The notes: a model not told the origin generated them from the sequence alone. A stretch of 24,000 bases of DNA from Candidatus Thioglobus perditus (GCA_002909145.1 PNQY01000179.1:10939-34938); one strand, 5' to 3'. Counted from the first letter of the stretch, positions 384 through 24,000 are shown. Program-made: numbers and translations.

Positions 384-2171
384 TTATTTTTTAAAACTTG
401 CAGCTATTTTAGTCGCTAACATAAGATTAATGCCACTTACTTTTTGAATCTCTGCAATACTGGCTTTTTGAATCTCTTGTAATCCGCCAAAATAATTAAG
501 TAATGCCTCTCTGCGCATCTTGCCTATGCCATTAATATTTTCAAGTGGCGAAGTTGTGCGTTTTTTTCCACGTTTTTTTCTATGATTTTTGATAGCAAAT
601 CTATGTGACTCATCACGAATATGGTTCACTAACAACAAGGCTTGATCGTGTGGCGGCAAGTTAATTTTATTAACTTTATTATTCTCAATAATAATAAGGG
701 TTTCAAGCCCCGCCTTTCTACCCTCTCCTTTTGCAATTCCGACTAATTGTACATCATCAACCCCAATTGAATTCATTACCATTACCGCCTGATTAAGCTG
801 ACCCAAACCACCATCAATAAATACAATATCAGGCATAGGACTGTCATCTTTTAAAGCCTTAGAGTACCTCCTAAAAATCACCTGCCTCATAGCTGCATAA
901 TCATCTCCTGGAGTTATATCTTTAATATTAAATTGACGATATTTAGCCACTTTTGGCAAGCCTTTTTCAAACACCACACAAGAGGCTGTAGTCGCCTCAC
1001 CCATCATATGACTAATATCAAAACACTCCATAATATTTGGCAGTTTTTTAAGATTGAGAGTTTTTTGCAAATGTAGCAATTGTGAGTGTTTAGTAAATTT
1101 TGAAACCAAGTATTGATTAAGCTCCTCTTTGGCAGTAAGAGTAGCAATATCAAGAAAATGCTTTTTGTCTTTTTGTGGACTGTCAATAATATTAGTATTA
1201 AGAGCCGAAGATATAATTTTTTTATCGCCTAGTTTATGATTTACAAGTATTTGCTTAGGAGTGTCTTTACCTAAATAATAAAGTGGCAAAAATGCTTCCA
1301 ATACTTTTTCTAAGTTTTTACCTTTTGAATTTTTAGGCATAACAAACTCTTGAGCAATCTGTTTACCAGAACGCACAAATAAAACTTCAACACCATGAGT
1401 GTGATCTTGCTCAACAATGCTAACAACATCCATATCCCCCATAGATTTAGAGCTATGCTGCTCTTGAATTATGCGCAAATCAATCAACTGATCTCGCAGT
1501 CTTGCTGCAAGCTCAAAATCTTGAATCTCGGACGCTAATTGCATTTTTTCTGAAATTTTATCCAAGGTTTTCTTGCCTTTCCCGGATAGAAAAAGAGAGG
1601 CCATTCTAACGTCTTGAGTGTAATTATCATTGCTAATTTTCCCCACACACGGGGCACTACACAAGCCTATTTGATACTCTAAACAAGGACGTGATCTGGA
1701 TCTATATGTTGCATTGGTACAACCACGAACTTTAAATATCTTTTTTAATAGATCTAGAGACTCTCTAACTACATTGGCTGACGGGTACGGGCCAAAAAAT
1801 TGATATTTTTCACTTCTACTGCCACGATAAAATCCAATTCTAGGGTGTTTATCATTAGTTATATAAATATATGGATAGCTTTTTGCATCTTTTAATAAAA
1901 TATTGTATCTAGGATTGTTGAGTTTAATTAACTCACTTTCCAACAACAATGCCTGAGTTTCAGTAACAGTTACAATAACTTTAAAATCTTTTATATTTGC
2001 AACCAAAGCTCTAGTTTTATCATCATTATGATGCTCTTTAGCAAAATAGCTAGACACTCTTTTTTTTAGGTTTTTAGCTTTACCTACATAAATAACCAGA
2101 TCCCTCTTATCAAGCATCTGATAGACCCCTGTAGAGCTTGTTAAATTTTTTATCTTTTCTTTAATTGTCAT
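384..2171 (-). CDS. uvrC: excinuclease ABC subunit C (UvrC)
   Basis: 595 aa with ATG start. N-terminal GIY-YIG motif (GVYQMLDKRDLVIYVGKAKNLKKRVSSYF), a central UVR-like helix region, and a C-terminal endonuclease plus helix-hairpin-helix tail (INGIGKMRREALLNYFGGLQEIQKASIAEIQKVSGI). Confidence 0.95.
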   Translation of the reverse strand: MTIKEKIKNLTSSTGVYQMLDKRDLVIYVGKAKNLKKRVSSYFAKEHHNDDKTRALVANIKDFKVIVTVTETQALLLESELIKLNNPRYNILLKDAKSYPYIYITNDKHPRIGFYRGSRSEKYQFFGPYPSANVVRESLDLLKKIFKVRGCTNATYRSRSRPCLEYQIGLCSAPCVGKISNDNYTQDVRMASLFLSGKGKKTLDKISEKMQLASEIQDFELAARLRDQLIDLRIIQEQHSSKSMGDMDVVSIVEQDHTHGVEVLFVRSGKQIAQEFVMPKNSKGKNLEKVLEAFLPLYYLGKDTPKQILVNHKLGDKKIISSALNTNIIDSPQKDKKHFLDIATLTAKEELNQYLVSKFTKHSQLLHLQKTLNLKKLPNIMECFDISHMMGEATTASCVVFEKGLPKVAKYRQFNIKDITPGDDYAAMRQVIFRRYSKALKDDSPMPDIVFIDGGLGQLNQAVMVMNSIGVDDVQLVGIAKGEGRKAGLETLIIIENNKVNKINLPPHDQALLLVNHIRDESHRFAIKNHRKKRGKKRTTSPLENINGIGKMRREALLNYFGGLQEIQKASIAEIQKVSGINLMLATKIAASFKK

Positions 2172-2231
2172 CTGTACAAAAAAATCTTAAGGAGGTAAAA
2201 TAATGACTCATTAATTTCTCATTTAAAAACA

Positions 2232-2891
2232 ATGATCAAATCACTATTAATTATATTATCTATTTTGCACATGAGTACTGCTTTAGCAGTCAATAAAGCA
2301 CCAGATACGGAAAATATTAGTAAAAATATAGTAAATATTATCGATCCGCCTAACTCTGCAGCACTGAACATTATGGTGGATGCCCTAAGCTCGTTAAAAG
2401 AGCTGAAAAAACAAAATAAGGCAACCCCAGAAAATGTTGAAGCTCTAATCCGTATAAAATTATTACCAAATATTGCTATGGGAGTTTCTACCAAAATTGC
2501 ACTTAGCAAGCATTGGAGTAATTTAGATGTTAACCAAAAAAAGTTTTTTCAAAACTATATTTCTGAATCCCTAATCCAAGACTACGTTAGTATCCTATCT
2601 AGCTATGATAAGCTGGATACAGTTAAAATTGCAGTAGATCCAAAAGTTAAACGTAAGGATAATAAAGCAATAGTCAAGCTAATTGTTAATATTAATGATA
2701 ATCCAAAACCTATAATAATCTCACTAAAAATGATTAGACTTAACTCTTGGCATGTTTACGATCTCGTGTTTTCTGGAGTTAGCATTGTTAAAAACTATAG
2801 CGCCCAATTTAATTCACACATTAAGCGTAAAGGTGTTGAAAGTTTGATTAAAAAGTCAGAGAAAAAGTTAAATAAACTAAAAAAACTATAA
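2232..2891 (+). CDS. mlaC: MlaC/Ttg2D-family periplasmic phospholipid-binding protein
   Basis: 219 aa with a signal peptide (MIKSLLIILSILHMSTALA). It aligns by eye with E. coli MlaC blocks (LLPNIAMGVSTKIALSKHW, WHVYDLVFSGVSIVKNYSAQFNSHIKRKGVESLI). It sits directly upstream of murA, as the mla operon does in E. coli. No mlaFED or mlaB is present in the window. Confidence 0.75.
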   Translation: MIKSLLIILSILHMSTALAVNKAPDTENISKNIVNIIDPPNSAALNIMVDALSSLKELKKQNKATPENVEALIRIKLLPNIAMGVSTKIALSKHWSNLDVNQKKFFQNYISESLIQDYVSILSSYDKLDTVKIAVDPKVKRKDNKAIVKLIVNINDNPKPIIISLKMIRLNSWHVYDLVFSGVSIVKNYSAQFNSHIKRKGVESLIKKSEKKLNKLKKL

Positions 2892-2901
2892 AAAATAAAT
2901 A

Positions 2902-4161
2902 GTGTACAAGCTTATCATTAAGGGTGCTCAGCCATTAAATGGCAGTATTAAAATTGCCGGATCAAAAAACTCATCCTTACCAATTTTATTCGCCTCAATA
3001 CTAGCAGACTCACCAGTAACACTAACCAACACCCCACATCTAAGTGATGTATCAACCACACTTAGATTGTTAATGGATATGGGGTCTGAATTTGTTCTAG
3101 AATCAGACAGCTCTATTTTTATAGACTCATCAAAACTAACCAAACTAACTGCGGAATACAGCTTGGTTAAAACTATGCGTGCATCAATATTAGCACTAGG
3201 ACCTATGTTAGCAAAATATGGTAAAGCAAAAATATCGCTACCAGGTGGTTGTGCTATTGGTGCTAGACCTGTTAACTTACATCTTAAAGCATTGGAAGAT
3301 CTTGGCGCCACAATAGAAGTAAAAAACGGATATATTTATGCTGAAGCTGAAGGGTTAATTGGCACAGAAGTATATTTTGAACAGGTGAGCGTAACTGCTA
3401 CTGAAAACATTATTATGGCAGCTACAATTGCAAAAGGCACAACTGTTATCAGCAATGCAGCACAAGAGCCAGAAATTGTAGACCTGGTTAATTGCCTTAT
3501 AAAAATGGGGGCAAAAATATCTGGAGCTGGTACTGCAATTATCACCATTAAAGGTGTTGATAAATTATCAGGAGTTAGTTACGCGGTTTGCCCTGATAGA
3601 ATTGAGGCGGGGACATATCTCGTTGCAGCAGCTATTACTGGTGGCAGCATTACAGTTAAAAATGTACGCCATCAATCAATGCGCTCTATTATTGGAAAAC
3701 TAATAGAAACTGGGGCAAATATTAAATCCACTAAAAACTCAATAACCCTTAATATGAACGGCAAGAGACCTAAGGCTGTTAATGTTAAAACTAGTGCTTA
3801 CCCAAACTTCCCTACAGATATGCAAGCGCAATTTACCGCATTAAACACTATTGCAGATGGGCACAGTACTATAACTGAAACTATATTTGAAAACCGCTTT
3901 ATGCACATTCCAGAGCTTGCGCGTATGGGTGCAGATCTAACTTTAGAAGGCAACACCGTTGTTTGCAAAGGTGTAAAATCGCTTACTGGCGCAAATTTAA
4001 TGGCAACTGACCTTAGAGCTTCGGCCTCATTGGTTTTAGCGGCTCTTGCGGCTAAAGGCACAAGTACTATTGAACGCGTGTACCACTTAGATCGTGGTTA
4101 TGAAACTATTGAAGAGAAATTAAAACTATTGGGCGCAAACATTGAGCGCATACAGGATTAA
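2902..4161 (+). CDS. murA: UDP-N-acetylglucosamine 1-carboxyvinyltransferase (MurA)
   Basis: 419 aa with GTG start at 2902. It has the typical N-terminus (LNGSIKIAGSKNSSLPILFASIL) and an active-site loop LPGGCAIGARPVNLH carrying the Cys targeted by fosfomycin. Confidence 0.95.
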   Translation: MYKLIIKGAQPLNGSIKIAGSKNSSLPILFASILADSPVTLTNTPHLSDVSTTLRLLMDMGSEFVLESDSSIFIDSSKLTKLTAEYSLVKTMRASILALGPMLAKYGKAKISLPGGCAIGARPVNLHLKALEDLGATIEVKNGYIYAEAEGLIGTEVYFEQVSVTATENIIMAATIAKGTTVISNAAQEPEIVDLVNCLIKMGAKISGAGTAIITIKGVDKLSGVSYAVCPDRIEAGTYLVAAAITGGSITVKNVRHQSMRSIIGKLIETGANIKSTKNSITLNMNGKRPKAVNVKTSAYPNFPTDMQAQFTALNTIADGHSTITETIFENRFMHIPELARMGADLTLEGNTVVCKGVKSLTGANLMATDLRASASLVLAALAAKGTSTIERVYHLDRGYETIEEKLKLLGANIERIQD

Positions 4162-16720: not shown

Positions 16721-17392
16721 ATGTTTTGGCAAGAAGACTCTAAAAAGCAACATTTTACTCTGCCTGATACCATACAAGATGCAGTGTTTAATATACATTC
16801 TAAAGTTCTACCAATTGATCATAGTTTTTTATTATCACAGGCACTTCTAAATCACCTTCCATGGCTGGAAGAGGTTAATGCAGGTGTGCACAGTATTGGT
16901 GTGCACGATGGCAATGGATGGAAGCAAGACCATAAAAATGGGCTTTACTACCCCTCTAGACGCTCTAAATTAGTCATTAGGATGCCAAAAGAAAATCTTA
17001 TTGAGGCTAATAAGCTTGTTGGAAAAACTCTAGACTTAGGTAAATATAAAATAGATATAGTTAAAGCATTAAAACCAAAACTACTTAGTAGTATGCAAGT
17101 TGTCTTTGCAAAAGCTGTAGCCTGTGATCAGAACACAGACGAGGATGACTTTCTACAAACCTCATACAATCAACTTAAAGATTTAGGCATTCAACCTAAA
17201 AAAATGCTTGCAGGACTTGAGAGTAGTATTAAAACCGATACAGCAAGTTTGCATGCTAGATCTTTAATGGTTGCAGACCTTACTAAACAAGAATCAGTAA
17301 AACTACAAGAGCACGGCATTGGAAAACACAGGTTGCTTGGCTGTGGCTTATTTATTCCACATAAAGATATTGAAAGTGCTGATGAATCTTAA
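16721..17392 (+). CDS. stand-alone Cas6/Cmx6-like RAMP-superfamily protein (COG5551-like; older annotations say 'DNA repair protein')
   Basis: 223 aa. From memory it resembles proteins annotated 'type I-MYXAN CRISPR-associated protein Cas6/Cmx6', which start M.WQED and end ...GCG.F.PHK. A C-terminal glycine-rich loop GIGKHRLLGCG (G-x-G-x5-G-x-G, nt 17315-17347) is the RAMP hallmark. No array or other cas genes are nearby. This needs HMM confirmation. Confidence 0.5.
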   Translation: MFWQEDSKKQHFTLPDTIQDAVFNIHSKVLPIDHSFLLSQALLNHLPWLEEVNAGVHSIGVHDGNGWKQDHKNGLYYPSRRSKLVIRMPKENLIEANKLVGKTLDLGKYKIDIVKALKPKLLSSMQVVFAKAVACDQNTDEDDFLQTSYNQLKDLGIQPKKMLAGLESSIKTDTASLHARSLMVADLTKQESVKLQEHGIGKHRLLGCGLFIPHKDIESADES

Positions 17393-18833: not shown

Positions 18834-19688
18834 TTATACAGTAAATGGATATTTAATCGGATCATGATGCTCGTAACCCACCAACTCAAAATCATCCATG
18901 GTTACCCATGTTTCTAGGTCTTTTAGAGTTTTAATTTCTGGATTAATCTTTAGTGATGGTAGCGCTAACGGTTTACGATCAACCTGTTCATTTTTAAAAA
19001 TATCTACTTGATTTTCATAAAGGTGCACATTGGATAAATGGTGACGCATTTTTCGCGCTTTTTTTCCCGTAATTTGTGCAGTAATCATAAGCAAAAATGC
19101 AACCTGAAAATGATTAAATGGCTGACCAAGTGCATAGTCTGATGAACGCTGATAGCTTTCCAGATAAAGATCATCACCTAACAAATTAAAATGATGTGTG
19201 TGCATACATGCCGGTAAGCACGCACGATGAATGAGATTTGGATGGTTAAAAGTCATAATCTCGCGTCTATCATCAATACCATTTGACAGATCAGTTACAA
19301 TCTTTTTATATTGGTCTAATGGTTCATCATCTTCAATGCCTGGAAATGCTCGCCCTATCACCCCATAACACATACCCATATCATCTTCACCTTTACGGTG
19401 TGGATTATCTAGCCAGGCTTGGTTGTCATTGGCATTGGCATTCCAAGTATTACAGCCAATGGCTCGAAATTGCGCAGCAGAATCGTAGCCTCGAATATAG
19501 CCCAGCATTTCAGCAATGGCAGATTTCCAGAAGAGTTTTTTAGTGGTAACCACAGGCACAGTGCCATCAGATAAATCGTGCTCAAAAGTCGCGCCAATAA
19601 TAGCTAATGTTTTTTGCCCTGTGCGAGCATTTTCAAGCCACACGCCTTCATCTAAAATTCTTTTTCCAATATCAATATACGCTTTCAT
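18834..19688 (-). CDS. thyA: thymidylate synthase ThyA (283-284-aa Haemophilus/Vibrio-type)
   Basis: 284 aa. Blocks WKSAIAEMLGYIRGYD, CLPACMHTHHF (catalytic Cys), YQRSSDYALGQPFN, and a C-terminus LETWVTMDDFELVGYEHHDPIKYPFTV matching my recollection of H. influenzae ThyA. The lgt TGA overlaps the thyA ATG (ATGA at 19685-19688). Confidence 0.95.
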   Translation of the reverse strand: MKAYIDIGKRILDEGVWLENARTGQKTLAIIGATFEHDLSDGTVPVVTTKKLFWKSAIAEMLGYIRGYDSAAQFRAIGCNTWNANANDNQAWLDNPHRKGEDDMGMCYGVIGRAFPGIEDDEPLDQYKKIVTDLSNGIDDRREIMTFNHPNLIHRACLPACMHTHHFNLLGDDLYLESYQRSSDYALGQPFNHFQVAFLLMITAQITGKKARKMRHHLSNVHLYENQVDIFKNEQVDRKPLALPSLKINPEIKTLKDLETWVTMDDFELVGYEHHDPIKYPFTV

Positions 19689-20455
19689 TTTTTCTCATAA
19701 GCTTTGTTTAATAGATAAATCCCCAGCATAATCATTGGCAGAGTTAAGACTTGGCCCATAGTTAACCATCCAAATGCAAGGTAACCAATATGCGCATCAG
19801 GCATGCGAACAAACTCAATTATAAATCTAAAGAGTCCATAAAAAATTAAAAATAGACTTGATATAGTCATAGACGGCCTTGGCTTATTACTAACCATCCA
19901 AAGGATGGCAAATAGTACAAATCCCTCTAAAAACGCCTCATAAAGCTGTGACGGATAACGTGAAACACCCTCAGATTTAATATACACACCCAATGAGCTA
20001 TTAGTAACCCCACCCCATAACTCACCATTAATAAAATTACCAATTCTACCAAACCCCAGTCCCAACGGCACAAGCGGTGCGACAAAATCCATGGTGGTAA
20101 AAAATGTTTTGCCATATTTACGATTAAATAAATACATGGCAAATAAAACACCTAAAAATCCTCCATGGAACGACATTCCACCACCCTGGATAGAAAAGAT
20201 TGATAGTGGATCATTCAAGAATGTAGAAAGATTATAAAACAACATATAGCCCAATCTTCCACCAACAACAGCTCCAATAGCACCATAGAAAATTAAATCT
20301 TCAATCTGCTGTTTATTCCAATGATCTAAATTCTTAGATCTGTAATTAGCTAAAAGATATGCTGACAAAAATGCCAATAGATACATTAACCCATACCAAT
20401 AAACTTGTACAAAGCCTAAGTCAAATGCAACTGGATTAATATCTGGGTAGGTCAT
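19685..20455 (-). CDS. lgt: prolipoprotein diacylglyceryl transferase (Lgt)
   Basis: 256 aa, polytopic. Motifs GGRLGYM, GGMSFHGG, FGRIGNFINGELWG and YPSQLYEAFLEG, in the conserved lgt-thyA arrangement. Confidence 0.95.
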   Translation of the reverse strand: MTYPDINPVAFDLGFVQVYWYGLMYLLAFLSAYLLANYRSKNLDHWNKQQIEDLIFYGAIGAVVGGRLGYMLFYNLSTFLNDPLSIFSIQGGGMSFHGGFLGVLFAMYLFNRKYGKTFFTTMDFVAPLVPLGLGFGRIGNFINGELWGGVTNSSLGVYIKSEGVSRYPSQLYEAFLEGFVLFAILWMVSNKPRPSMTISSLFLIFYGLFRFIIEFVRMPDAHIGYLAFGWLTMGQVLTLPMIMLGIYLLNKAYEKK

Positions 20456-20477
20456 ATTTTAAATTCTTTGATAGTGA

Positions 20478-20554
20478 TAAAGACTTCTAAATAATTTAAA
20501 CACTAAACATTCAGCTTTAAATGGCAAAATTCTATCCAGCTGAGCTGCAAACGC
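20478..20554 (-). pseudogene. decayed second copy of tRNA-Arg(CCG)
   Basis: At a constant offset of 2330 nt from the intact tRNA, the first 24 tRNA nt (20531-20554) match 20/24. The remaining 53 nt (20478-20530) align ungapped at about 27/53, with a good share of the differences being G/C in the intact copy versus A/T here. No cloverleaf can be folded. Confidence 0.45.
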
Positions 20555-20621
20555 AGATTATGTGAAAGCAGTTAAAATGCTTGTTGATTGATCTATTTGT
20601 CAGAGCAAAAAACTTTTTGCA
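20531..20621. repeat. left copy of a 91-bp direct repeat (tRNA 5' part + tRNA upstream flank + last codons of the arsR-family gene)
   Basis: Hand alignment with 22861-22951 gives 80/91 identical with no gaps. The terminal 23 bp (20599-20621, gtcagagcaaaaaactttttgca) are identical. Confidence 0.85.
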
Positions 20622-20749
20622 GTGGTTCTTGACAGTCATTATCACCTTTTTAAGTTATCCAAAATCAACTAGCTAATACGTGAGCAATCATACCATATAC
20701 ACCCAATTAACTTCCTTCCATAAAGTGCAAAAAGCACAACAAATATATC

Positions 20750-20774
20750 TCAAGTGTAGAAAGTTTACACTTGA
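20750..20774. promoter_or_regulatory. perfect 9-bp palindrome TCAAGTGTA-N7-TACACTTGA (candidate operator)
   Basis: Read directly: 20750-20758 is the reverse complement of 20766-20774. It lies in the ~300-nt non-coding leader, 150 nt upstream of the wHTH gene. Confidence 0.45.
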
Positions 20775-20874
20775 AATATAATGATGAAAAAACCTCAGGT
20801 TTTCAACCTGAACCACCCCTTAAGAACAGCGAGTAGTTCGAAATATGATGATTAAGTCAATACAGTTCAATATA

Positions 20875-20883
20875 TGCTATAAT
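20875..20883 (+). promoter_or_regulatory. extended -10 promoter element TGCTATAAT
   Basis: An exact TGnTATAAT lies 41 nt upstream of the wHTH ATG (20924). An AAGG ribosome-binding remnant sits at 20913-20916. No good -35 is present. AT-rich background makes chance matches likely. Confidence 0.35.
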
Positions 20884-20923
20884 TAAATGTAACAAATATC
20901 AATATAAATGCGAAGGCGACAAT

Positions 20924-21202
20924 ATGAAAGAAATCAGAAATCTATTTAAAATGCGTGAATCCCTTGATAGGTACGAAGAAGAAATTGGCATTGCCAAGCT
21001 TTCTAACCTTGAAAAATCAATACTGGAATTTATTGCATCTACCGATAACCCAACAATTACTTTAATTACTAAAACAGACTATTTTAAAAAATATTCATTC
21101 TCATCAATTAAAAGAGGGGTTAATTCACTTATTGAGTACAAGCTTGTTAGACAAGATATATCACAAGAAGACAAAAGAAATAAATTTTTAGTTTGCACTT
21201 GA
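20924..21202 (+). CDS. small winged-helix (MarR-like, truncated) DNA-binding protein
   Basis: 92 aa. LSNLEKSILEFIASTDNPTITLITKTDYFKKYSFSSIKRGVNSLIEYKLVRQDISQEDKRNKFLV follows the MarR wHTH pattern (helix-turn-helix, then the wing R..D..D.R...L). It ends right after the wing, so it lacks the usual C-terminal dimerisation helices. Confidence 0.55.
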   Translation: MKEIRNLFKMRESLDRYEEEIGIAKLSNLEKSILEFIASTDNPTITLITKTDYFKKYSFSSIKRGVNSLIEYKLVRQDISQEDKRNKFLVCT

Positions 21203-21777
21203 TAGCGCACCTGGTGTTATCATTTATAAAGCTAATTAAAATTAATTTAATTGTATTAATTGCAATAGCTTTAGTCTTTTACGTAACCATTTTATTAGGG
21301 GACGGTCCCGGAAAGCTCGACACATATTTAAAATTTATGATGGGTGCAAAAATTCTGCTTTTATTAACTTTTGGTTTTGCAGCAGTCCCTGGAATTATTA
21401 TTGCATTCGCATTTATCGCAACCAATTACTCTCCATTAATTGTGGACAATTTTGGGGTGGTGATATTCACTCTTATTCATACCATAGTACCAATTAGTGC
21501 TATACATTTAATGAATATCACTAAAGTATCTAATTTTATAGATCTAACAAATATAGACTTCCGTCATATAATGTTTTTAGTACTATTTGCTTCACTATTC
21601 TCAAGTATTTTCAAATACATTTTGATTGAAGAGTTTACTAATTTAGAAATCAATGGAGGGTTTTTTATATGGAAGTATTTCATATCTAATTCACTTGGTG
21701 GATTAGTTTTAATATACTTTGTGCTGAGAACTATTCCTTATGCGCTTTCAAAGCTTGGTTACCAATTAAATAACTAG
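21193..21777 (+). CDS. hypothetical polytopic membrane protein (about 5 TM), paralog-like to the next gene
   Basis: 194 aa. It has no ATG start (TTG at 21193, with alternatives TTG 21199 and GTG 21214) and overlaps the wHTH gene by 10 nt in another frame. I count five hydrophobic segments. The C-terminal segment FISNSLGGLVLIYFVLR mirrors FLPGDIIGGIVFLLTSV of the next ORF. Confidence 0.5.
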   Translation: MHLIAHLVLSFIKLIKINLIVLIAIALVFYVTILLGDGPGKLDTYLKFMMGAKILLLLTFGFAAVPGIIIAFAFIATNYSPLIVDNFGVVIFTLIHTIVPISAIHLMNITKVSNFIDLTNIDFRHIMFLVLFASLFSSIFKYILIEEFTNLEINGGFFIWKYFISNSLGGLVLIYFVLRTIPYALSKLGYQLNN

Positions 21778-21779
21778 AA

Positions 21780-22373
21780 ATGCATCTACTTTTAATAAAT
21801 ATCAAAGCCTTCCTCATTGTATTTTTATCTTATTTCATTGTTAATGTTATGCTTAATTTTGAAATTTTTCAAAATATTATCTTCTTTACTAAAGACTTTA
21901 ACCCTACTGTTGGCTTCCTTTTGTATTTACCAATTGGAGCAGTACTATTGAATTACTTGCTATATGGTAAAAAAGTCATATTAATTATTTCTGCCACAGT
22001 AATTTCGTACGGAATTTACAATGAACTCAAAAGTCATATCTTAATTGGATATTCAATTGTTGGAATATTTGGCCCGTTATTGGCGATATGTTTAGTTGAA
22101 AGATTTAAACTTATTGATTTTAAAAAATTCCCAAATACTCCAGTCAAAAGTTTATTGTTTCTGTGTGTTGTTGCGGCGGTAATAAATACTACTGGTAAAT
22201 TTATAGTCTATTACTCCTACCCCTATAGTGATGCTGCTATAAGTTGGTTTGATGGCGGACCAACTACTTTCTTATTAACCTTTCTGCCTGGTGATATTAT
22301 TGGTGGTATTGTGTTTCTTTTAACAAGTGTGTTTGTTATCAGATACTTTCATTTAGAAGACATTGACGCCTAA
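21780..22373 (+). CDS. hypothetical polytopic membrane protein (about 6 TM), faintly MASE1-like
   Basis: 197 aa with ATG 2 nt after the previous stop. The pattern LPIGAVLL...GIFGPLLAICLVERF...FLPGDIIGGIVFLL reminds me of MASE1-type membrane sensor domains. This is unverified. Confidence 0.55.
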   Translation: MHLLLINIKAFLIVFLSYFIVNVMLNFEIFQNIIFFTKDFNPTVGFLLYLPIGAVLLNYLLYGKKVILIISATVISYGIYNELKSHILIGYSIVGIFGPLLAICLVERFKLIDFKKFPNTPVKSLLFLCVVAAVINTTGKFIVYYSYPYSDAAISWFDGGPTTFLLTFLPGDIIGGIVFLLTSVFVIRYFHLEDIDA

Positions 22374-22458
22374 AAAGTATTTTTTACAAGTGAATGAATC
22401 TTAATTTAGAGCAATAGAGATAATCATTTTATGGAAAGTAATTGCTACACTTTCAATA

Positions 22459-22779
22459 TTATGATTTATAAACATTAACTAAAATAACTCCTATAACAAT
22501 TAAAAACAATCCAAAAATAGTTGGCCAATTTAACATCTGTTTATAGAAAAAATAACTTAGTATTGCTATAGAAAAAACTCCTATACCTGACCAAGACGCA
22601 TAAACAATTGATAGGGGTAATTTTTGAGAAACAATAGCAAGAAAATAGAAAGATACTATATATGAAGTGAACAAAATAGTAGTAGGCAATATTTTGGTAA
22701 AATTTTGCGATGCAGGTAACATCATCGTACCCAAGACTTCAAACACAATTGCTCCAAAGAGTATTAAATATACATTCAT
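22459..22779 (-). CDS. small multidrug resistance (SMR/EmrE-like) transporter
   Basis: 106 aa with 4 TM segments. The essential TM1 glutamate is present in GAIVFEVLGTMML, YASWSGIGV corresponds to EmrE AIWSGVG, and the length and topology are typical. Confidence 0.85.
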   Translation of the reverse strand: MNVYLILFGAIVFEVLGTMMLPASQNFTKILPTTILFTSYIVSFYFLAIVSQKLPLSIVYASWSGIGVFSIAILSYFFYKQMLNWPTIFGLFLIVIGVILVNVYKS

Positions 22780-22807
22780 TCTAGAAAAAATATAAGTCTA
22801 TGAAATA

Positions 22808-22884
22808 TGGTGCGCTCGACAGAATTCGAATCTGCGACATTTGGCTTCGGAGGCCAACACTCTATCCAGCTGAGCTACGAGCGC
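22808..22884 (-). tRNA. tRNA-Arg (anticodon CCG), CCA-encoded
   Basis: Reverse complement is GCGCTCGTAGCTCAGCTGGATAGAGTGTTGGCCTCCGAAGCCAAATGTCGCAGATTCGAATTCTGTCGAGCGCACCA. It folds as a cloverleaf: 7-bp acceptor stem (GCGCTCG/CGAGCGC), D arm, anticodon stem TTGGC/GCCAA with loop CTCCGAA, and T arm GCAGA-TTCGAAT-TCTGT. Confidence 0.92.
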
Positions 22885-22951
22885 AAATTATGCGGAAGTA
22901 GTTAAAATGTTTGTTTATTGATTTATTCGTCAGAGCAAAAAACTTTTTGCA
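22861..22951. repeat. right copy of the 91-bp direct repeat
   Basis: See 20531-20621. It covers tRNA nt 1-24, the 38-nt gap, and the last 8 codons plus stop of the ArsR-family gene. Confidence 0.85.
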
Positions 22952-23231
22952 TATTGGCAACTAATTTCAAAATTTTTGCATCTTTAACTTTACATAAAAT
23001 TTTGTTACCATCACGCCGCGATTCTACAATTTCTTTGGTTCTAAGAATATCAATATGCTGTGAAATATTAGACTGAGAAGACCCTACTTGTTTTACAATT
23101 TCAAGTACTGGTAATTCTTCATTTTTTAGTGCGCACAGAATCTTTAAACGCAACGGATGTGCCATTGCTTTTAAAGCTCTAGTGGCCTTTTCAATATCCT
23201 CTTCTTTCTCTAAAAGTGTCATGTCGCCCAT
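22923..23231 (-). CDS. ArsR/SmtB-family transcriptional regulator
   Basis: 102 aa with SD GGGAGAG upstream. Family pattern LKAMAHPLRLKILCALKNEELPVLEIVKQVGSSQSNISQHIDILRTKEIV. Cysteines occur at LCAL, ILCKV and FCSDE. The canonical ELCVCD metal site is absent. Confidence 0.85.
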   Translation of the reverse strand: MGDMTLLEKEEDIEKATRALKAMAHPLRLKILCALKNEELPVLEIVKQVGSSQSNISQHIDILRTKEIVESRRDGNKILCKVKDAKILKLVANMQKVFCSDE

Positions 23232-23253
23232 AATATTCTCTCCCTAAGATTTT

Positions 23254-23838
23254 TTAAATTCTACCCAGCATTCCATAAATGCCATATCTTCTAGCTTTTA
23301 TTAACACCATCTTTTGGTAATAATTAGTTAGACTATCATTGTTAAGAACAATATCAAATATTTGCCAATTTTCTTCTTTGTTTTGATGGAATAGCAGATC
23401 AATATATATAGGATATGATGAATATCCATTAACTCTAAGTTGTACAGCTATAGAGCCACCCATTACTGGTCTAGCAGAAATGAACTGGAAAGATGTAGAG
23501 TTTGCCTGAGATAATCTTGTTAATAGTGTTGAAATAATGTTTTTCTTTAGCTTTCCTGAAAAGAACCTAACCTCGTCTTGGCTTAAGCTATTATTAGTAA
23601 CCAATAACACCTCATTAGCAATATGTTCAAAATCAAACATTGGAGATATTTCTTTATCAACCAAAAAATTCATCATTTGAGGTGAATAAGCTGCAGCAGT
23701 TGTAAGTTGATTAAGCTTTACTATAGCTGACTGTATGGCCTGAACCGGTCCGCTTTCTTGTGATTCCTCTTCTTCAGCGAATAAGCCTAATGAAAACAAC
23801 ATTGTTAAAGCTAATAAAATTACATTAAATCTTCTCAT
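23254..23838 (-). CDS. second MlaC/Ttg2D-like periplasmic lipid-binding protein
   Basis: I prefer the ATG at 23838 (MRRFNVILLALTMLFSLGLFA signal peptide) because GGAGAAAAA precedes it; the track start at 23868 is 10 codons upstream. Family-like blocks are EISPMFDFEHIANEVL and NWQIFDIVLNNDSLTNYYQ. Family assignment is by eye. Confidence 0.55.
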   Translation of the reverse strand: MRRFNVILLALTMLFSLGLFAEEEESQESGPVQAIQSAIVKLNQLTTAAAYSPQMMNFLVDKEISPMFDFEHIANEVLLVTNNSLSQDEVRFFSGKLKKNIISTLLTRLSQANSTSFQFISARPVMGGSIAVQLRVNGYSSYPIYIDLLFHQNKEENWQIFDIVLNNDSLTNYYQKMVLIKARRYGIYGMLGRI

Positions 23839-23942
23839 TTTTTCTCCATTATATAAAAACAAAACCAAGTAAAATCAAACTCAATATTGTAGGTGTTTTC
23901 ACAGTATTATATTTAAACTTTTTATAAGTAAATGATTATATT

Positions 23943-24000
23943 ATGAATTTCTTTAACTTTTTTAAGCATTTATTGCTTTTAGTAATTTTTTTAACCCTTT
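23943..24000 (+). CDS. 5' end of an ORF leaving the window (hydrophobic N-terminus)
   Basis: ATG at 23943, then MNFFNFFKHLLLLVIFLTL with no stop before the window end. Only 19 codons are visible. Confidence 0.2.
   Translation, partial: MNFFNFFKHLLLLVIFLTL

Follow-up and report, generated by a model that had tools for sequence, protein, structure and literature searches.

In a 24,000-nucleotide (nt) stretch of DNA from Candidatus Thioglobus perditus (GCA_002909145.1 PNQY01000179.1:10939-34938; the whole stretch is referred to below as the window), a small group of accessory genes stands between an intact tRNA-Arg(CCG) gene and the housekeeping genes lgt and thyA. The question raised by this locus is how these genes came to be there. 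An initial annotation, made from the sequence alone, had described an insert of about 2.2 kilobases (kb) bracketed by a 91-bp direct repeat, and had pointed to two oddities: no integrase or transposase was seen, and the well-conserved repeated part was the 5′ end of the tRNA together with its upstream flank, not the 3′ end that tRNA-targeting integrases normally duplicate. Comparison with related genomes indicates that the segment is an insertion into the ancestral SUP05 gene order, and that the repeat appears to be the better preserved part of a second, decayed tRNA gene.

A direct repeat and an insertion at tRNA-Arg(CCG)

A repeat search of the window returned the pair 20507-20621 and 22837-22951, 115 nt long and 83% identical without gaps, at an offset of 2330 nt. 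Its core, 20531-20621 against 22861-22951, matches at 80 of 91 positions in our own count. Both results agree with the repeat first reported, and the match lies far above background: in 20 shuffles of positions 19500-24000, the best 91-nt ungapped diagonal had a mean of 48.3 matches and a maximum of 50. Weaker identity prolongs the repeat to 144 nt in total, and past either end the identity in the same register is 20-25%. A 23-nt block, TGCAAAAAGTTTTTTGCTCTGAC, belongs to the repeat. The content of the right copy is also as described, the identifications coming from ARAGORN, Rfam, Pfam and NCBIfam: nt 1-24 of the tRNA-Arg, a 38-nt spacer, and the stop codon of an arsR-family gene with its last 8 codons, so that the last 27 nt of arsR and the stop fall within the repeat. 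The arsR gene is a core gene, syntenic in all relatives, with 83-94% amino acid (aa) identity to its orthologues at the empty sites described below. Between the two copies lie genes for a small protein, two membrane proteins and an SMR efflux pump, and lgt-thyA follows on the left, again in agreement with the initial description (Table 1).

At least four independent assemblies, made from different samples, have the filled structure at 99.8-99.9% identity (L081, L082, L091 and L102; L numbers are our own handles for the sequences compared), and three of them (L081, L082 and L102) span both repeat copies. Its recurrence means that it is no assembly artefact.

The Lgt protein of the window is 75-81% identical to the Lgt proteins of Candidatus Thioglobus, Bathymodiolus gill symbionts and vesicomyid symbionts, that is, of the SUP05/Thioglobaceae clade. 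In five SUP05 lineages (L092/93, L094/95, L103/104, L105-107 and L108-110) the site is empty. The gene order is mlaC-arsR-tRNA-Arg(CCG)-lgt-thyA, and the ATG of lgt lies 3-36 nt past the tRNA 3′ end at all five sites, with no genes between. This is the direct adjacency of arsR, tRNA-Arg and lgt that the initial annotation had suggested looking for in close relatives, and the adjacency of tRNA and lgt holds even in the most distant SUP05 relatives examined. Outside SUP05, a tRNA precedes lgt at none of the 80 gammaproteobacterial lgt loci among the matches listed, all of which have Lgt identities of 62% or less. No empty site was seen among the same-species contigs, which are 99.8-100% identical to the window and, where they extend past the tRNA, have the insert. 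We conclude that mlaC-arsR-tRNA-Arg(CCG)-lgt-thyA is the ancestral SUP05 arrangement, and that in the lineage of the window a 2330-nt segment was inserted between arsR and the old tRNA. On the minus strand this segment comprises a new tRNA-Arg copy, whose T-arm is foreign (see below), then the SMR pump, a cassette of three genes and 300 nt that are non-coding. The view of the locus as an insertion at a tRNA gene, a genomic islet, is thus borne out by the five empty sites.

The islet has other marks of such elements. It adjoins a tRNA gene, the insert beginning after tRNA-Arg(CCG) at 22808-22884; it is missing from the related genomes of the five empty-site lineages; and it is bordered by a tRNA-derived direct repeat of 115-144 nt, which is atypical in spanning the whole tRNA and its upstream flank. 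The composition of the insert deviates as well. Its G+C content is 29.5%, compared with 35.2% for the window and a mean of 35.5% for windows of equal size, and none of the 437 other 2186-nt windows of the 24 kb is as low (minimum 29.6%). The AT-richness suspected earlier is therefore real, and it lends weak support to the islet, the comparison being with only 24 kb of core sequence in which membrane-protein genes are AT-rich.

The working tRNA and its decayed counterpart

The T-arm of the working tRNA was compared with that of six relatives. Over nt 1-48 the tRNA is identical to that of the empty-site relatives L092 and L094, and the sole difference from these lies in the T-stem, where GGGTG/CACCT has become GCAGA/TCTGT, a change of four pair swaps, all of them compensated. 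The T-stem is GGGTG/CACCT at all five empty sites. In an exact-match scan of one metagenome collection the variant T-arm (GCAGATTCGAATTCTGT) was found elsewhere only in L101, a different species (contig Ga0105349_10001512, which stops 560 nt after the tRNA), and in viral contigs it had no matches. L101 is likewise a filled site, with DNA other than lgt after its variant tRNA; besides the variant T-arm, about 16 nt following the tRNA are common to L101 and the window. The nucleotide identity of L101 to the window across arsR-mlaC is 72.8%, no closer than that of the empty-site lineages (75.5% for L092 and 75.3% for L103), and the variant T-arm has therefore spread horizontally. In these alignments the variant is tied to filled sites, and it has moved as the tRNA 3′ end borne by an element would. 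The 3′ part of the tRNA in the window was thus exchanged, as happens in classical tRNA-targeted integration. The T-stem variant GCAGA/TCTGT is usable as a marker of past integration at the tRNA-Arg(CCG)/lgt site.

The left copy of the repeat continues beyond the part first described, and runs in register through the entire length of the tRNA. Compared segment by segment with the right copy, it is 96% identical at the arsR 3′ end (26/27), 82% in the spacer segment (33/40) and 88% over tRNA nt 1-24 (21/24), then 62% over nt 25-48 (15/24) and 41% over nt 49-77 (12/29). Thus, the identity does not end at tRNA nt 24, as had been supposed, and instead falls stepwise through nt 77. Over its last 33 nt, the left copy agrees in register with the empty-site tRNA at 18/33 positions (chance 0.24, p = 1.3e-4). 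The two T-arm types differ at eight sites of the T-stem. At four of these the left copy has the ancestral base (G, T, G, A); at two it has the variant base, in both cases a T reachable from an ancestral C by C>T; and at the remaining two it agrees with neither type. As a tRNA it went undetected by ARAGORN, and by Rfam at E<=1. We therefore read the left copy as the old resident tRNA-Arg, preceded by a copy of the spacer and of the final 27 nt of arsR, and now a pseudogene attached to lgt.

The 5′ part of this tRNA has decayed far less than the rest, and therefore it alone looks like 'the repeat'. The earlier description was right in that the duplication of a tRNA 5′ half with its flank is unusual. 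Its statement that the 5′ end was duplicated in place of the 3′ end needs to be revised, however, since the left copy corresponds to a whole decayed tRNA and the 3′ part is what was exchanged. A scar of this kind can mislead, with the repeat best preserved on the 5′ side and the exchange on the 3′ side.

The unevenness of the decay is confined to G/C sites. Within the flank and tRNA nt 1-24 of the left copy, 5/32 G/C sites have changed, compared with 22/31 in tRNA nt 25-77 (Fisher p = 1e-5); in other words, 84% of G/C sites are conserved in the flank and tRNA 5′ part and 29% in the rest of the pseudo-tRNA. Of all 24 changes in nt 25-77, 20 are from G/C to A/T. A/T sites have changed alike in the two parts (6/59 and 2/22), which suggests that both are of equal age, and the 5′ part would therefore be either constrained or repaired from the right copy. 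Constraint is conceivable as a hypothesis, because in every relative lgt-thyA begins immediately past the tRNA, and it could rely on sequence further upstream. A promoter consensus scan of the minus strand gave no sigma-70-like site inside the flank copies, so the left flank can be proposed as an lgt promoter only hypothetically.

Some smaller observations concern the same sequences. The last arsR codons form a near-perfect 16-nt palindrome, GCAAAAAGTTTTTTGC, at 22929-22944 and at 20599-20614. The two repeat copies have it in identical form, 5 nt in from the repeat boundary, and the arsR ends of the relatives lack it; it could be a protein-binding site, or chance. The gap between the end of the pseudo-tRNA and the ATG of lgt (20456-20477) is about 22 nt (TCACTATCAAAGAATTTAAAAT), as against 3 nt in L092 and L094, and TTAAAATATG, immediately before the lgt start, is also present in the symbiont of Bathymodiolus septemdierum.

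One contig, L085 (GCA_024449815.1, JAANSY010880709.1), matches the window at 100% identity from mlaC through arsR and the spacer to tRNA nt 49, and its last 14 nt (window ~22835) are the ancestral T-arm, GGGTGTTCGAATCAC, not the variant. Either the contig comes from a strain of this species whose tRNA was not replaced (and whose site may be empty), or sequences of two species were joined in assembly within the conserved tRNA. We did not rely on it as an empty site: tRNA nt 1-50 are identical between species, and an assembly join explains the contig equally well. Other same-species contigs ending inside the tRNA are L083 (at 22840), L087 (at 22850) and L091 (at 22864).

In addition, short open reading frames directly after the tRNA-His of L100 (1754-1831, beginning MATIQKIRRTHDIAYRVLIPSS) and directly after the variant tRNA-Arg of L101 (~494-423, minus strand, MMSTIHKISNKKGVSYRIFVRSI followed by a stop) resemble each other. 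Both also resemble the N-termini of tyrosine integrases, so they may be integrase stubs. A PHROGs scan with the short L101 peptide gave zero matches, and no integrase remnant was found in L101.

Possible routes of entry

The open reading frames of the islet contain no integrase or transposase domain (Pfam), and a tblastn search of the 24-kb window with the integrase of the related island described next gave only matches of E>1 and no integrase remnant. The absence of a mobility gene that had been noted at first is thus confirmed for the window. Pfam, PHROGs and NCBIfam scans of the four cargo proteins similarly gave no integrase, replication or packaging module of the tycheposon type. The islet therefore lacks the tyrosine or serine recombinase of an active integrative element.

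The site itself is one at which integrase elements do occur. In the Bathymodiolus septemdierum symbiont (AP013042, L096), an integrase island occupies the same tRNA-Arg(CCG)/lgt site. Its tyrosine integrase (Arm-DNA-bind_3, Phage_integrase) lies directly before lgt, at the lgt-proximal end of the island, and Fic, HTH_17 and restriction-modification genes follow on its far side. A tRNA-Arg fragment of the ancestral type, extending from the anticodon loop to CCA, separates the integrase from lgt; this fragment is a classical attR. The tRNA-Arg(CCG)/lgt site is thus an integration hot spot in SUP05 genomes and mussel symbionts. With respect to the pattern of att sites, the window is mixed: the foreign T-arm in the functional tRNA fits an integrase element, whereas the far repeat with its 5′ half and flank does not. 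Although simple site-specific integration explains the swapped T-arm, it is insufficient for the duplicated tRNA 5′ half, spacer and 27 nt of arsR. A model is further constrained by there being no tRNA 3′ fragment before the left flank, no integrase remnant, and an abrupt junction at 20621/20622.

We consider it on balance probable that a circle without an integrase entered by homologous crossover, and that the resident tRNA then decayed. In a donor, an integrative element targeting tRNA-Arg(CCG), with a T-arm of its own, would have resided at the site. Aberrant excision, as in specialised transduction, would have carried off the tRNA with the flank on the arsR side, leaving behind the lgt-side end and thereby the integrase, which lies at that end in L096. 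The circle would have contained the arsR 3′ end, the spacer, the tRNA with the variant T-arm, the SMR gene, the three-gene cassette described below and 300 nt, and one Campbell-type crossover, located in the roughly 115 nt of flank and tRNA 5′ part, could have brought it into an empty site. A linear fragment, joined by homology-facilitated illegitimate recombination, would be an alternative route to the same product. With H and H′ denoting the right and left flank copies, this product would be arsR-H-tRNA(new T-arm)-cargo-junction-H′-tRNA(old T-arm)-lgt, which is the order observed. The two tRNAs would have been redundant, and the old one would have decayed, mostly by changes from G/C to A/T. 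Campbell-type integration of a circle would seem to be the most economical single event.

Such an islet might also be difficult to lose. Deletion between H and H′ would remove the sole intact tRNA-Arg(CCG) seen in the window, and the islet would be locked in if the genome has no second copy of this gene. A fuller version, in which integrase-free homologous capture is combined with lock-in by tRNA replacement (deletion of the islet being lethal) and with retention of the spared flank for lgt-thyA expression, is offered tentatively, and as a whole we think it doubtful. If the lock-in and promoter ideas were true, an incoming tRNA copy could make a small islet permanent.

Several points weigh against entry as a circle from a donor. 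Scans of viral and metagenome sequences revealed no donor in which the variant T-arm is combined with the SMR gene, the cassette or an integrase. The two flank copies have in common lineage-specific states not seen in other species, so the donor would have to be of the same or a very close lineage, and an intragenomic origin is equally compatible. The data cover a 24-kb window, and the rest of the genome may contain a further tRNA-Arg(CCG) gene or an integrase that acts in trans. The weakest link is the assignment of the left-copy T-arm to the ancestral type, which depends on only eight sites of a sequence that has mutated heavily; taken over all 33 positions, the left copy has 18 matches to the ancestral type and 16 to the variant. 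Finally, a single event followed by neutral drift does not predict the uneven decay, so that an extra assumption is needed, whether constraint, gene conversion or a two-stage history.

A different order of events, which we judge unlikely, would begin with a tandem duplication in situ of roughly 150 nt (arsR 3′ end, spacer and tRNA). Classical integration into the upstream tRNA copy would then have replaced its T-arm, after which deletions would have removed the attR fragment and most of the element with its integrase, and the downstream tRNA copy would have decayed. The foreign T-arm in the functional copy, the apparently ancestral T-arm in the pseudo copy and the lineage-specific sequence in both flank copies are all explained in this way, and a relative does have an integrase element at the same site. 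However, at least three independent events are required, and a tandem tRNA duplicate is present in none of the five relatives examined. Nor is there an integrase remnant, and the stretch that separates the left flank copy from the cargo has no attR-type tRNA 3′ fragment: a search for a tRNA remnant in 20622-20923 gave scores no better than shuffles.

A history in two stages is less probable again, and in our view distinctly improbable. Here an old integration would have left an attR fragment (tRNA nt ~25-77) by lgt, and a later homologous exchange would have set the flank and tRNA nt 1-24 before it. The far stronger decay of the 3′ two-thirds of the tRNA at G/C sites (22/31 against 5/32) would follow, and the attR fragment of L096 starts at the anticodon loop, near the step in identity. 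The A/T sites are nevertheless equally diverged (6/59 and 2/22), arguing for equal age, and no simple recombination would bring the tRNA 5′ part, the spacer and only 27 nt of arsR into register ahead of an old fragment without also giving the Campbell product.

It is very improbable that the four genes are ancient vertical content, held by the ancestor between two tRNA copies and lost from the relatives by recombination between direct repeats. Such a deletion would restore a clean empty site, and SMR pump homologues with 75-85% identity are frequent in marine metagenomes. However, five lineages would have had to lose the genes independently. The ancestral T-arm is found at all five empty sites and the variant at two filled sites only; the cassette stands at another tRNA locus in another lineage, and the SMR relatives examined are in unrelated contexts. 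Moreover, the G+C content of the insert is the lowest in the window, and the close adjacency of lgt and tRNA extends to the most distant of the SUP05 relatives examined. The probability of chance similarity or an assembly artefact is negligible, with 80/91 matches against a shuffle maximum of 50 and the same structure in at least four independent assemblies.

The islet is close to several known systems. It resembles the classical tRNA-linked islands, of which that of L096 is the closest, in lying by a tRNA, in its absence from relatives, in the replaced T-arm, and in having a tRNA repeat at the far end, low G+C content and accessory cargo. Unlike them, it has no mobility gene and is only 2.3 kb long, and in place of their 3′ fragment its far-end repeat comprises the whole tRNA and, upstream of it, 67 nt of flank that take in the end of a protein gene. 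In the heterogenotes formed by lambda dgal in specialised transduction, carried host flank serves as homology, the flank is duplicated and integration functions are lost. Homology-facilitated illegitimate recombination is documented (PMC3240628), and it is similar in that incoming host flank serves as the homology, the flank is duplicated and one junction is illegitimate. The islet has no phage genes, and the likeness is an analogy of mechanism drawn from sequence.

In the tycheposon model of Prochlorococcus, degenerated elements and 'flanking DNA from other hosts' are proposed to accumulate by tRNAs (bioRxiv 10.1101/2020.12.28.424599). The islet is like these islands in belonging to a streamlined marine bacterium, with cargo by a tRNA and partial or pseudo tRNAs as scars. 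It differs from them in having none of the hallmark genes (integrase, replication module), the comparison being made by the absence of integrase domains. The islet behaves like what is left, in degenerate form, of tRNA-targeted integration together with capture by homology, and these processes are all known. Unusual features are a pseudo-tRNA of full length whose upstream flank is duplicated too, a T-arm swap with compensated pairs, and decay that is uneven. The locus offers a clean case, dated by decay, of a streamlined marine member of the SUP05/Thioglobaceae gaining genes at a tRNA hot spot while keeping no mobility gene.

Cargo genes and surroundings

Table 1. Features of the locus; positions are counted from the first nucleotide of the window.
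Feature	Position	Strand	Evidence
arsR-family regulator gene, 102 aa	22923..23231	-	PF01022 (HTH_5) E 3.5e-11; NF033788 (ArsR/SmtB) 79.5 bits vs cut-off 55
Right flank copy (H): arsR 3′ end, stop codon, 38-nt pre-tRNA spacer	22885..22951	-	Repeat alignment
Functional tRNA-Arg(CCG)	22808..22884	-	ARAGORN; Rfam tRNA 66.4 bits
SMR (EmrE/Qac-like) efflux pump, 106 aa, cargo	22459..22779	-	PF00893 77.7 bits vs cut-off 23.7
197-aa multi-helix membrane protein of a rare family, cargo	21780..22373	+	Homologue searches, AlphaFold2 (AF2) model
194-aa membrane protein, distant tandem paralogue of the 197-aa protein, cargo	21193..21777	+	Sequence comparison
92-aa protein, possibly winged helix-turn-helix, first gene of the three-gene cassette	20924..21202	+	Weak matches
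Extended -10-like box TGCTATAAT upstream of the cassette	20875..20883	+	Conserved at the other genomic location of the cassette
Two terminator-like hairpins between cassette and left repeat copy	20744..20812	-	Consensus scan only
Non-coding stretch of the insert, 302 nt	20622..20923		Abrupt junction with duplicated flank at 20621/20622
Left flank copy (H′): non-coding copy of arsR 3′ end and spacer	20555..20621	-	26/27 and 33/40 identical to right copy
Full-length pseudo-tRNA-Arg, decayed resident gene, abuts lgt	20478..20554	-	In-register identity 21/24, 15/24 and 12/29 to right copy
lgt-thyA, core genes	18834..20455	-	Domain annotation, synteny

The cargo pump resembles the SMR (EmrE/Qac) pumps in its length and in its full-length match to PF00893, over residues 4-94 (E 1e-21), with Glu14 kept. 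Unlike the named pumps, it scores under every NCBIfam equivalog cut-off, so no substrate is assigned. Its nearest homologues, at 75-85% identity, are found in unrelated operons.

The three-gene cassette (20922-22357) has 75% DNA identity to a cassette in another lineage, where it sits after a tRNA-Pro/tRNA-Arg(TCT)/tRNA-His cluster downstream of ubiD, without the SMR gene. Its 92-aa protein is 66-68% identical to the orthologues in L097-L100. The box TGCTATAAT lies inside the sole conserved stretch of the two cassette upstream regions, which scores 28 compared with 18.8 +/- 2.5 for shuffles (maximum 29). The cargo is thus a mosaic of at least two modules, the SMR pump and the three-gene cassette. 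Besides the intact tRNA, an Rfam scan of the islet found no RNA family, and a PADLOC scan of the cargo gave zero matches to defence systems.

The 197-aa membrane protein belongs to a rare family, represented by 2 clusters in 5.8 billion proteins and by 29 representatives in 1.84 billion. MASE1 (PF05231) is matched by 7 of 22 relatives in the family (best E 7.5e-7), and the proteins of the window give no match. The AF2 model of the 197-aa protein has a pLDDT of 87.8, and its best PDB matches are ECF S-components, at a TM score of about 0.5 and E>0.2, which is not significant. The start of the 194-aa protein is uncertain, gene callers giving it 187 aa. Members of this very rare family are about 180-200 aa long and share the motifs LPxGA, PLLAI, NTxxKF and GDxxGG, and in two lineages the membrane proteins are tandem paralogues that follow the putative helix-turn-helix protein of 92 aa.

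For that small protein, the open reading frame noted in the initial annotation is present, and the winged helix-turn-helix label attached to it is plausible, the matches being weak: phrog_37711 at E 1.9e-5, a CARF/Csa3 helix-turn-helix at E 0.016 and a MarR-type chain at E 0.18. There was no match in Pfam, a single-sequence model was poor (pLDDT 57.5), and no relatives were found in viral contigs.

Two further observations were made in the surroundings of the locus and its counterparts. In L103 (CP125320.1, a complete SUP05-type genome), parA/parB upstream of the locus are fragmented and a DDE transposase lies nearby (952-3494), which suggests gene decay in that lineage. In the window, a stand-alone gene of the Cas6 family lies at 16721-17392 on the plus strand, between a thioredoxin-like gene and rnc (PF09559, from the precomputed annotation of same-species contigs), and its position is the same in all SUP05 relatives examined.

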